A stretch of DNA of 25,996 nt. Origin: Escherichia coli. GTDB taxonomy: Bacteria; Pseudomonadota; Gammaproteobacteria; Enterobacterales; Enterobacteriaceae. The notes under the pieces were generated by a model. That model saw nothing but the letters and a program-made list of their open reading frames with translations, did not search any database and was not told where the DNA came from. Where the stretch lies: assembly GCF_003334315.1 (NCBI RefSeq), contig NZ_QOWR01000064.1. One strand, given 5' to 3'. The stretch's first letter is position 1. Each line of letters opens with the position of its first letter. Shown in pieces: positions 22,378 to 24,471 of the stretch. The translations under genes were made by a program, and so were the position numbers.

Positions 22378-24471
22378 ATGAAAGCTACAGAAGCTCGCCT
22401 ACTCGATTTTTTAAAACGTTCGCAGCAGTTTGTTATTCCCATTTATCAACGGACTTATTCATGGACAGAACAACAATGTCGGCAACTTTGGGACGACATC
22501 ATTCGTGCCGGAAAGCGTGACGATATATCAGCGCATTTTATCGGTTCGGTTGTTTATATTGAGCAGGGGGTGTATCAGGTTTCTGGTATTTCTCCGTTAC
22601 TGGTCATTGATGGTCAACAACGGCTGACGACCGCAATGTTGCTGATTGAGGCTTTATCGCGCCATCTTGGCGAAGACGAAGTTTTTGATGGCTTTTCAGC
22701 AATGAAATTGCGTAATTATTATTTGCTCAATCCTTATGAGTCCGGCGAGAAAGGATTTAAATTACTGCTGACCGAGACTGATAAAGACAGTTTGCTGGCG
22801 TTAATAAAACAAAGACCGATGCCAGAAAACTATTCCCATCGAATAATGGAAAATTTTACTTTCTTTGATGAACAAATTGCCAAACTCGGTGATGACTTGA
22901 TCCCCTTATGTCGTGGGTTAGCAAAGTTATTAATTGTCGATGTGGCGCTTAATCGTGGTCAGGATAATCCGCAACTGATTTTTGAAAGTATGAACTCCAC
23001 CGGTAAGGCGTTAAGTCAGGCCGATCTGGTGCGCAATTTTATTCTGATGGGCATCGAACCAGAGCATCAAACCCGGTTGTATGAAGATCACTGGCGTCCA
23101 ATGGAAGTCGCCTTTGGTCAGCAAGGTTACAGCGAATATTTTGACAGTTTTATGCGTCATTATCTGACGGTAAAAACGGGGGAGATCCCTCGGACAGATG
23201 AAGTCTATGAGGCATTTAAGCTCCATGCCCGCAGCCAGCGTGTTGCAGAAAAAGGCGTAGATCGGCTGGTTGAAGATATTCACATCTACGCGGAGTATTA
23301 CTGTGCAATGGCATTGGGTAAAGAAAGTGACAAATCGCTTGCTACGGCTTTTCAGGATTTGCGCGAGTTAAAAGTCGATGTGGCTTACCCTTTTTTACTG
23401 GCGCTTTATCATGACTATAAAAATGGCGATTTATCTCACGAAGATTTCCTGAGCATAATTCGTTTAATTGAATCTTATGTTTTCCGCCGTGCAGTGTGTG
23501 CGATTCCGACCAATTCTCTTAACAAGACGTTTGCCACTTTTTATAAGGTCATTAATAAAGAAAAATATCTGGAAAGTATTCAGGTACATTTTACGAACCT
23601 GCCTTCATATCGTCGTTTCCCCAACGATGATGAATTTAAACGGGAATTAAAAGTTCGCGATCTCTATAACTTCCGCAGCCGCAGCTACTGGTTACGACGA
23701 CTGGAAAACGATAAACGCAGAGAGCGCGTGGAAGAGTTTACGATTGAGCACATTATGCCGCAGAACGAAAATTTGTCGGCTAAATGGCGTGAAGAGCTGG
23801 GAAGTGACTGGCAGCGTGTGCATAAAGAACTGTTGCATACGTTGGGGAATCTCACTTTAACGCGCTATAACTCCCGCTACAGTGACAGACCTTTTGCGGA
23901 AAAACGCGATATTGAAGACGGCTTTAAACATAGCCCGCTCTATTTGAATATCGGTCTTGGGCAGTGCGAAAAATGGGATGAAGCCGCCATTCGCGCCCGT
24001 GCCGATCGTCTGGCCGATCTCGCGGTTCAGGTCTGGCAAGCACCTGCTCTTCCTGAAGAGGTTTTAGCTGTTTATCGGGGTCAGCCGGAGAACAAAACCA
24101 GTTACAGCCTGAGTGATTATCCTTTTCTTGCTGATGGTTCGCATAGCCGGGTGTTATTCGATCATCTTCGCGATGAAGTTATGCGCCTGGACGCAGGGAT
24201 CACGCAGGAAGTATTGAAGCTGTATATTGCGTTTAAAGCGGAAACGAATTTTGTTGATGTTGTGCCGCAAAAAAGCCGACTGCGATTGTCGCTTAATATG
24301 CAGTTTCATGAACTGGTCGATCCGAAAAGTATTGCCAAAGATGTGACAAATGTTGGGCGCTGGGGCAATGGCGATGTGGAAATTGGTTTCAGCGACCTCG
24401 CACAACTTCCTTACATTATGGGATTAATTCGTCAGGCATTTGAAAAACAAATGGAGAGCGCGTTGGTATAA
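22378..24471 (+). CDS. DUF262/DUF1524 fusion protein (GmrSD-family, candidate modification-dependent type IV restriction endonuclease), 697 aa
   Basis: N-terminus IPIYQRTYSW…LWDDI and VIDGQQRLTT (DUF262/ParB-like NTP-binding signature, nt ~22609-22623); C-terminus FTIEHIMPQN…LLHTLGNLTLT (DUF1524 His-Me/HNH-like nuclease signature, nt ~23740-23860). AT-rich by eye compared with the neighbouring core genes. Confidence 0.8.
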   Translation: MKATEARLLDFLKRSQQFVIPIYQRTYSWTEQQCRQLWDDIIRAGKRDDISAHFIGSVVYIEQGVYQVSGISPLLVIDGQQRLTTAMLLIEALSRHLGEDEVFDGFSAMKLRNYYLLNPYESGEKGFKLLLTETDKDSLLALIKQRPMPENYSHRIMENFTFFDEQIAKLGDDLIPLCRGLAKLLIVDVALNRGQDNPQLIFESMNSTGKALSQADLVRNFILMGIEPEHQTRLYEDHWRPMEVAFGQQGYSEYFDSFMRHYLTVKTGEIPRTDEVYEAFKLHARSQRVAEKGVDRLVEDIHIYAEYYCAMALGKESDKSLATAFQDLRELKVDVAYPFLLALYHDYKNGDLSHEDFLSIIRLIESYVFRRAVCAIPTNSLNKTFATFYKVINKEKYLESIQVHFTNLPSYRRFPNDDEFKRELKVRDLYNFRSRSYWLRRLENDKRRERVEEFTIEHIMPQNENLSAKWREELGSDWQRVHKELLHTLGNLTLTRYNSRYSDRPFAEKRDIEDGFKHSPLYLNIGLGQCEKWDEAAIRARADRLADLAVQVWQAPALPEEVLAVYRGQPENKTSYSLSDYPFLADGSHSRVLFDHLRDEVMRLDAGITQEVLKLYIAFKAETNFVDVVPQKSRLRLSLNMQFHELVDPKSIAKDVTNVGRWGNGDVEIGFSDLAQLPYIMGLIRQAFEKQMESALV

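Follow-up and report, generated by a model that had tools for sequence, protein, structure and literature searches.

The GmrSD-type gene and its three domains

We analysed a 25,996-nucleotide (nt) stretch of Escherichia coli DNA (contig NZ_QOWR01000064.1), referred to below as the window, and in particular an intact gene of the GmrSD family at 22378..24471 on its plus strand, located between yjiS and symE, within the immigration control region (ICR). According to the list of open reading frames (ORFs), the gene starts with ATG and encodes 697 amino acids (aa). An earlier note, made from the letters of the window alone, had described here a 697-aa ORF with a DGQQR-type DUF262 N-terminus and a DUF1524 C-terminus carrying EHIMPQ and LGNLTL, and both Pfam and the sequence agreed with this description. 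In the Pfam scan that the note had proposed, the two domains were matched significantly: GmrSD_N (DUF262), a ParB/Srx-like nucleoside triphosphatase (NTPase) module, at 22402..23043 (aa 9-222; PF03235, 6.6e-35), and GmrSD_C (DUF1524), a His-Me finger nuclease domain, at 23620..24018 (aa 415-547; PF07510, 1.1e-26), both on the plus strand like all parts of the gene. The sequence places DGQQR, the NTP-hydrolysis motif of the family, at 22609..22623 (aa 78-82), EHIMPQ, which contains the (D/E)HxxP catalytic motif, at 23746..23763 (aa 457-462), and LGNLTL, with N491 as the His-Me finger Asn, at 23842..23859 (aa 489-494). The two catalytic domains are separated by an all-helical linker at 23044..23619 (aa 223-414), as seen in the secondary structure of an AlphaFold2 (AF2) model. 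The two-domain description was nevertheless incomplete, since it overlooked a third domain, DUF5655, a putative DNA-binding module at 24148..24447 (aa 591-690; PF18899, 4.5e-13).

To describe conservation, we used an alignment of 62 homologues with 37-65% identity to the query. P21, Q24, R25, W29, G56, D78, Q80, Q81, R82, N206 and G209 were invariant in the GmrSD_N part, as were P461 and N491 in the GmrSD_C part, and G79, E457, H458, Q462 and N498 were conserved in at least 90% of the sequences. Mutations at such positions have been described in relatives. The DGQQR equivalents Q79 and R80 of HEC-06 are required for defence, as shown by Q79A and R80A, and E471A/H472A in the same protein abolish defence (bioRxiv 10.1101/2024.01.29.577857). 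The equivalent DGQQR residue of DndI is likewise required for defence, as shown by R87A (PMC11662687), and D507A/H508A abolish cleavage by Eco94GmrSD (PMC4437046).

Among the PADLOC models, the best match to the protein was 'Orf5' PDLC02693 (1.1e-223, 742 bits), which covered aa 10-553 end to end. The HEC-06 models also matched over their full length, at aa 8-555 (2e-68, 229 bits), and the type IV model mREase_IV matched with 6.1e-28. NCBIfam held no model for the protein, and the origin of the name 'Orf5', looked for in the DndI and HEC papers, was not found there; its model number, close to those of the SspE models, suggests that it may belong to the DNA-modification group of PADLOC. The features of the GmrSD superfamily are all present, namely a DUF262 domain with DGQQR, a DUF1524 domain with (D/E)HxxP and a downstream Asn, and a matching fold. 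As the HEC-06 profiles were outscored by Orf5 PDLC02693, the protein is, on its profile scores, best placed in a subfamily related to but distinct from HEC-06; it also showed no close sequence relation to BrxU of the BrxU/HEC-05 subfamily. Because accessions found at the yjiS-symE locus (WP_224153787, WP_001304006/7, WP_072147423, WP_000648221, WP_001531297 and AGB79837) occur in the published CLS_001 list (PMC12373910), we assign the ORF, as a single-chain member of the superfamily, to lineage CLS_001 of Silas and colleagues.

The AF2 model, built from the 62-sequence alignment, was confident (predicted local distance difference test, pLDDT, 91.7; predicted template modelling score, pTM, 0.80), and its helices at aa 228-426 had a pLDDT mostly above 90. 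When the model was compared with the PDB by Foldseek, the best matches were all GmrSD-like proteins: DndI 9JFL came first (1.7e-16), SspE 7DRS second (1.5e-14), and BrxU 7P9K third (3.1e-5), each with probability 1.00. With phmmer, DndI was found at 1e-13 and SspE was matched via the N-terminus only; BrxU 7P9K was not matched by phmmer at E-values up to 1, and its identity in the Foldseek alignment was 15%. The earlier note had suggested a comparison with characterised GmrSD, BrxU and SspE proteins. Of these, SspE, together with DndI, proved to be among the nearest solved relatives, and BrxU was far off.

DUF5655 forms an alpha-beta(4-5)-alpha sandwich and superposes on YdhG or YjbR, which identifies it as a 'double-wing' fold of the YdhG/YjbR type. 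Its identity to the double-wing domains of YjbR, YdhG (DUF1801) and the C-terminus of T4 MotA was only 8-16%. The double-wing proteins YjbR, YdhG and MotA are free-standing or transcriptional, whereas DUF5655 is here fused to a nuclease, and we know of no characterised nuclease fusion of this fold. The MotA C-terminal domain, of the same fold as DUF5655, has been solved bound to DNA. By analogy of fold, we infer that DUF5655 is a DNA-binding module, and since the MotA double-wing domain binds T4 DNA modified with 5-hydroxymethylcytosine (hmC), it is also a natural candidate for the reader of DNA modification. A literature search on DUF5655 returned nothing relevant. The C-terminus varies among relatives, some of which end at about residue 556-590 without DUF5655. 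In others, the protein is extended by unrelated sequence, or extra residues are inserted ahead of DUF5655, so that the C-terminal module can be exchanged. A profile search with DUF5655 for fusion partners returned only fragments of the GmrSD-like family and nothing on other partners. The same search returned many proteins of 120-220 aa that consist of DUF5655 alone, with or without a piece of GmrSD_C. Some DUF5655-only proteins were encoded on contigs of 100 kb to 1 Mb, and they may be fragments from gene calling or decayed remnants of the family in other taxa. In the GmrSD lineage that is commonest among enterobacteria, there is thus an undescribed third domain with a fold of DNA-binding type, and this is the obvious place to seek the specificity of the lineage.

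The cassette and its neighbours

The gene is carried by a variable cassette at 22287..24521 that has no homology to K-12, as delimited by pairwise alignments with K-12 MG1655, the K-12 annotation and GC content. On the left it is anchored by yjiS (DUF1127; 22117..22281, plus strand), identified from the K-12 alignment and the annotation of the sister genome PSS-13. With yjiR, yjiS lies upstream of the GmrSD-type gene, at a distance of 96 nt. The right anchor is the convergent symE (24518..24859, minus strand; NCBIfam equivalog NF010128, 229.9 bits against a cutoff of 132). Homology to MG1655 ends about 6 nt past the yjiS stop codon (~22287) and returns at the symE stop codon (~24522). Between these points, K-12 has a 7.5-kb segment with yjiT, the yjiV pseudogene, mcrC and mcrB, and the window has a 2.2-kb cassette consisting of the GmrSD-type gene, a leader of 91 nt and a hairpin before symE. 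K-12 alignment and annotation thus bear out the statement of the earlier note that the gene takes the place of yjiT/yjiV-mcrCB between yjiS and symE. The possibility that the gene is an intact form of the K-12 yjiT/yjiV remnants was ruled out, as BLASTP against YjiT was empty and the DNA could not be aligned between the anchors.

The GC content was 44.6% for the gene (43.5% at third codon positions, GC3) and 45.0% for the cassette, and 55.1% for yjiR (GC3 63.3%) and 54.7% for symE. The gene is AT-richer than its flanks, as the note had remarked, and 44.6% against ~55% GC is consistent with horizontal acquisition. The yjiS-symE slot also holds a GmrSD-type gene in ATCC 8739, O157:H7, O104:H4 and ST95. 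With its conserved anchors, its breakpoints at the ends of the anchor genes and its other content in other strains, the segment has the properties of a variable ICR cassette, and the gene is most simply read as having been acquired by horizontal cassette exchange. The hairpin, at 24485..24510 between the convergent GmrSD-type gene and symE, has a 10-bp stem (RNA fold -22.9 kcal/mol, z -2.47). It is a possible bidirectional terminator; a terminator scan did not call it, and there is no clean T-run after it.

Beyond symE, the window contains symR, a full-length gene for the antitoxin small RNA that overlaps the 5' end of symE (24854..24930, plus strand; Rfam RF01809, 91.3 bits against a gathering score of 61). 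It is followed by a remnant of hsdS on the minus strand (25080..25793), annotated as partial in PSS-13, of which only the C-terminal 237 aa are left, with 98% identity to residues 342-578 of the O104:H4 HsdS. The left end of an IS1 copy (25793..25996, plus strand; IS1A transposase in PSS-13), beginning GGTGATGCTGCCAACTTACTGATTTAGTG, truncates hsdS, and the window stops inside it. The earlier claim that hsdS is truncated by IS1 is therefore correct, the remnant abutting the IS1 end at ~25793. Over 15,619 nt, the PSS-13 locus differs from the window by 2 mismatches (99.99% identity); past IS1 it holds two small genes and yjiA, and hsdM, hsdR and mrr are all missing. Since these three genes are gone in the PSS-13 lineage, the GmrSD-type gene is the only restriction-type gene left at this IS1-eroded locus, as the note had supposed. 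Because the window ends inside IS1, what is said of the part beyond it is taken from the sister genome.

Both ends of the window (1-453 and 25793-25996) lie inside IS1 copies, so that the window probably represents a complete contig of a short-read assembly that was interrupted at IS1 repeats. At its start (1-1196), the last 453 nt of an IS1 copy abut a fimH gene cut at about residue 55 (...LVVDLSTQIF...). The window's strain thus has a disrupted gene for the type 1 fimbrial adhesin, whereas fimH is intact in PSS-13. In addition, a gene of the Rpn family at the rpnD position (19329-20285) is an intact ORF of 318 aa, and rpnD is annotated as a pseudogene in K-12.

Distribution and state of the gene

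The earlier note had asked how common this allele is. By megablast we found it in 1481 of 5426 complete E. coli genomes, about a quarter, and the match covered at least 80% of the gene in 1352 of the 1481. Almost all matches were chromosomal and single-copy, and by identity they fell into bands of 93 genomes at 99% or more, 1311 at 95-99%, 13 at 80-90% and 64 at 60-80%. A paralogue in Ecol_AZ159 (2501-4600 of the locus examined) encodes 699 aa with the same three domains and is 76% identical (73.5% at the nucleotide level, hence in the 60-80% band); its place in the ICR is a different one, with a type I hsdM on one side and the fic/brnA genes near yjiA on the other. In ATCC 8739, a second and different DUF262 gene (WP_000387532, cluster CLS_005) adjoins yjiA.

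The feature is already known, being a very common, annotated and published ICR allele. A GmrSD homologue in the ICR at the mcrBC locus was described by He et al. 2015 (PMC4437046), and an ICR gene replacing McrBC appears again in a 2025 EcoSal review (PMC12707154). This review gives the ICR gene the name 'Eco94GmrSD'; in He et al. (PMC4437046), Eco94GmrSD is prophage-borne and the ICR homologue is only 24% identical to it. In a 2025 study (PMC12373910), CLS_001 is the largest cluster of enterobacterial GmrSD proteins, and representatives of 15 GmrSD groups, CLS_001 included, were synthesised and tested against T-even phages. We found no biochemical characterisation of the CLS_001 lineage in the literature, and a search with locus tags (APECO1_2080 and others) led only to He et al. 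2015. The note had reckoned with the ORF being a well-characterised and widely annotated allele; it is indeed widespread and annotated (1481/5426), but no biochemical characterisation was found in this search. The ICR alleles of the APECO1_2080 type and EcolC_3721 of ATCC 8739 are the same gene in the same yjiS-symE slot. EcolC_3721 shares 687 of 697 residues with the window's protein, and the ST95 (B2) allele, taken to be of the APECO1_2080 type, has 98% protein identity to it. APECO1_2080 was reported to be 733 aa long, perhaps because a start codon farther upstream was taken; in the ST95 allele, an in-frame TTG upstream would give 739 aa. The window has no such upstream TTG start, and homologues begin at M1.

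The window's copy is one open frame, intact and identical in sequence to the PSS-13 copy. We translated 11 further alleles without obvious lesion, from ST95, O121, ATCC 8739 and eight other strains, and all 11 were full length, with 98-99% protein identity. In PSS-13, the Prokaryotic Genome Annotation Pipeline (PGAP) reports a DUF262 pseudogene ('missing C-terminus') and a 387-aa coding sequence starting from M311. The same split was seen in 10 of the 11 translated intact alleles as well as in PSS-13, leaving codons ~203-310 unannotated, and truly broken alleles are annotated by PGAP in other ways. The open frame and the 11 full-length alleles rule out that the split marks a broken gene in the window. 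It is an annotation artefact, and RefSeq seems to mis-annotate this intact gene systematically, owing to which censuses based on RefSeq proteins may undercount or misclassify it.

Truly broken alleles are nevertheless frequent. We found a W239* nonsense mutation in O104:H4 and one other strain, a 1-bp frameshift in O157:H7 that leaves 293 + 387 aa, a different frameshift in strain CP66-6, a stop within the gene in O55:H7, and deletion remnants. In RCAD0514, which has hsdS::IS1 like the window, the gene itself is also interrupted by IS1, near nt 246. Among the matches listed with a 100%-identical allele, IS1 lay within the match in 9 of 14 genomes (RCAD0514 and eight others). The two halves in O157:H7 recall the two-chain GmrS/GmrD form, which was reported to be active for CT596. 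In a sample of 60 records spread evenly down the megablast ranking, ~29 looked intact, ~29 were broken or remnants, and two were the paralogue only. By extrapolation, ~13% of complete E. coli genomes, roughly one in eight, carry an intact copy, close to the 12% given in the EcoSal review (PMC12707154). Between the window and the O104:H4 allele, synonymous divergence (dS) was 0.084 and nonsynonymous divergence (dN) 0.0055; the dN/dS of 0.065 points to strong purifying selection on the gene despite its turnover. Repeatedly inactivated in major pathogen lineages (O157:H7, O55:H7 and O104:H4) and strongly conserved elsewhere, the gene offers a clean natural test of what a restriction gene costs its host and what it brings.

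The three-domain architecture of ~700 aa is kept at ~70% identity in Citrobacter, Halomonas, Oceanimonas, Salinivibrio, Nitrincola and Kiritimatiella. In a library clustered at 50%, 19,665 representatives matched at an E-value of at most 1e-3 and 2,795 at or below 1e-30. In all six informative loci, the homologue was inside or adjoining a defence system. Kiritimatiella and Salinivibrio have the order hsdM-hsdS-[gene]-hsdR with 4-bp overlaps at both gene boundaries; in Oceanimonas, where the type I operon is headed by brxR, the gene and the end of hsdR overlap; in Citrobacter, it is found in an ICR-like locus facing hsdRSM; in Nitrincola, it adjoins Mks-like genes; and on a metagenome scaffold, it directly follows brxL. 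These loci match a published report by which GmrSD-like genes frequently lie within Hma and type I restriction-modification (R-M) systems. No dnd or ssp modification genes were found in the window or in these six loci. In ATCC 8739 (18583-26807 of the locus examined), the copy is intact, hsdM is truncated by IS3 and no hsdR is annotated between hsdM and yjiA. The gene is hence intact where hsdM has been lost or cut (the PSS-13 lineage and ATCC 8739), yet operonic with hsdM and hsdS in several taxa.

Proposed function and comparison with known systems

We propose, with a probability of about 0.7, that the protein is a stand-alone NTP-dependent His-Me nuclease that restricts DNA with a non-host modification. 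This proposal is drawn from the close analogy with HEC-06, in which defence requires the DGQQR and EH residues, from that with Eco94GmrSD and BrxU, which are NTP-stimulated, modification-dependent nucleases, and from the persistence of an intact gene in two independent lineages that have no functional type I methylase. As the gene is intact without hsdM and hsdR, cells seem to tolerate it in the absence of a partner modification enzyme, which is what a type IV enzyme would lead one to expect. The DUF262 domain, with its ParB/Srx fold and DGQQR, would bind and hydrolyse nucleotide and serve as a conformational switch; the long helical linker could support a dimer; the DUF1524 His-Me finger (E457-H458, N491 and N498) would nick or cleave DNA; and the DUF5655 double-wing domain may add an extra surface for DNA contact. 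The target would be incoming DNA with a hypermodified non-host base, ordinary E. coli DNA being spared, and the enzyme would thereby complement neighbouring type I R-M systems, which attack unmodified DNA. The earlier note was right that the target modification of this protein cannot be read from its sequence.

Several observations weigh against this proposal. The closest solved relatives, DndI and SspE, are governed by host phosphorothioate and are not of type IV, and the type IV enzyme BrxU is far more distant (nothing in phmmer to an E-value of 1; 3e-5 in Foldseek). We found no activity data for the 697-aa protein or a close relative, and only 5 of 12 previously untested groups were active in the study with T-even phages (PMC12373910). 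About half of the E. coli carriers have an inactivated copy, and selection to keep the gene must therefore be intermittent. A promoter scan found none convincing in the 96 nt upstream and nothing above chance near the gene, which may be expressed by read-through from yjiS. In addition, the statement of the earlier note that fusions of DUF262 and DUF1524 are modification-dependent (type IV) in the characterised cases was too strong, since SspE and DndI are nickases governed by host phosphorothioate marks (PMC11662687).

These relatives raise the alternative that the protein is a nickase sensing a self mark in partnership with the type I R-M system beside it, just as DndI and SspE are paired with phosphorothioation, and would then be a second effector instead of a type IV enzyme. 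It would scan DNA, be switched off or released by host N6-methyladenine (m6A) through a DUF262 patch or DUF5655, and nick unmarked incoming DNA. In favour of this are the ranks of DndI (Foldseek 1.7e-16; phmmer 1e-13) and SspE ahead of BrxU, and the position of the gene between hsdS and hsdR with 4-bp overlaps in Kiritimatiella and Salinivibrio, overlapping the end of hsdR in Oceanimonas, and beside hsdRMS in E. coli and Citrobacter. The sensing patch of DndI (P23, Y25, Q26) is also present, as P21, Y23 and Q24, but P-x-Y-Q-R is a general DUF262 motif and P21, Q24 and R25 are invariant family-wide. The state of the neighbouring genes fits this alternative less well: the gene is intact and 99-100% conserved in the window and PSS-13, with hsdS::IS1 and with hsdM and hsdR gone, and in ATCC 8739, with hsdM::IS3, whereas DndI is toxic without its mark (PMC11662687). 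Moreover, homologues adjoin Mks-like genes or BrxL without a type I system nearby, and inactivated alleles occur in strains that keep hsdS and hsdM (O157:H7 and O104:H4), so that decay does not follow loss of the partner. We consider such a self-mark sensor improbable. More tentative still is the extension that the family is a second effector co-evolved with type I R-M, in which DUF5655 reads host m6A or phage hypermodification and gates the ParB-like NTPase switch, in the way that phosphorothioate gates DndI and SspE; if this were true, the unusually high identity of ~70% between E. coli and Kiritimatiella and the 4-bp overlapping place between hsdS and hsdR would be signs that the protein is coupled, physically or in its regulation, to the type I complex.

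It is also conceivable, though unlikely, that the gene is intact but idle, a recent cassette heading for decay that is silent or has no current target. The frequent independent inactivations (W239*, frameshifts, an internal stop, IS1 and deletion remnants), the lack of a clear promoter upstream and the IS1 erosion of the surrounding locus would fit this, but such turnover is normal for working defence genes, and a dN/dS of 0.065 across E. coli lineages, the intactness of all catalytic residues, and the full length of 11/11 translated alleles without obvious lesion at 98-99% protein identity argue against it. We give very little credit to a trigger other than DNA modification, namely a phage protein or the inhibition of R-M, by which the protein would act as a back-up nuclease or abortive-infection effector like PrrC. 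It shares with PrrC its embedding in type I R-M operons, and the variable C-terminal module (DUF5655, absent, or an unrelated extension) could be a sensor; on the other hand, no characterised DUF262/DUF1524 protein works in this way, and the DUF5655 fold suggests binding of nucleic acid over sensing of protein. Restriction of modified DNA by a stand-alone enzyme remains our preferred reading. For this window, the outcome is the correct identification of a common and already catalogued defence gene, and in itself matters little.

Compared with known systems, the gene takes the same chromosomal slot as McrBC of K-12, and each is considered a restriction function that works without a methylase as partner. 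McrBC, however, has no homology to the GmrSD-type protein and is a two-subunit, GTP-dependent AAA+/PD-(D/E)XK enzyme. Eco94GmrSD, CT596 GmrSD and BrxU (7P9K) belong to the same superfamily, have the two-domain core and define the type IV GmrSD activity on DNA with glucosyl-hmC, hmC or 5-methylcytosine. They differ from the present protein in genomic niche, the GmrSD proteins being in prophages and BrxU in a BREX system, and in the absence of DUF5655; Eco94GmrSD is 24% identical to the ICR homologue (He et al., PMC4437046). DndI (9JFL) and SspE (6JIV, 7DRS) are the best matches among solved structures, by sequence and by fold, and share with the 697-aa protein the architecture of a DUF262 NTPase and a DUF1524 nickase as well as DGQQR. 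Their identity to it is only 16-19%, they have no DUF5655, and DndI is toxic without its modification (PMC11662687), whereas the gene described here is tolerated alone. HEC-06 (Payne et al. 2024, bioRxiv 10.1101/2024.01.29.577857) is likewise a GmrSD-like single-gene defence embedded in other defence systems, with the same DGQQR and EHxxP motifs. The HEC-06 models, however, are ~560 positions long and without DUF5655, the domain that the 697-aa protein has in addition.

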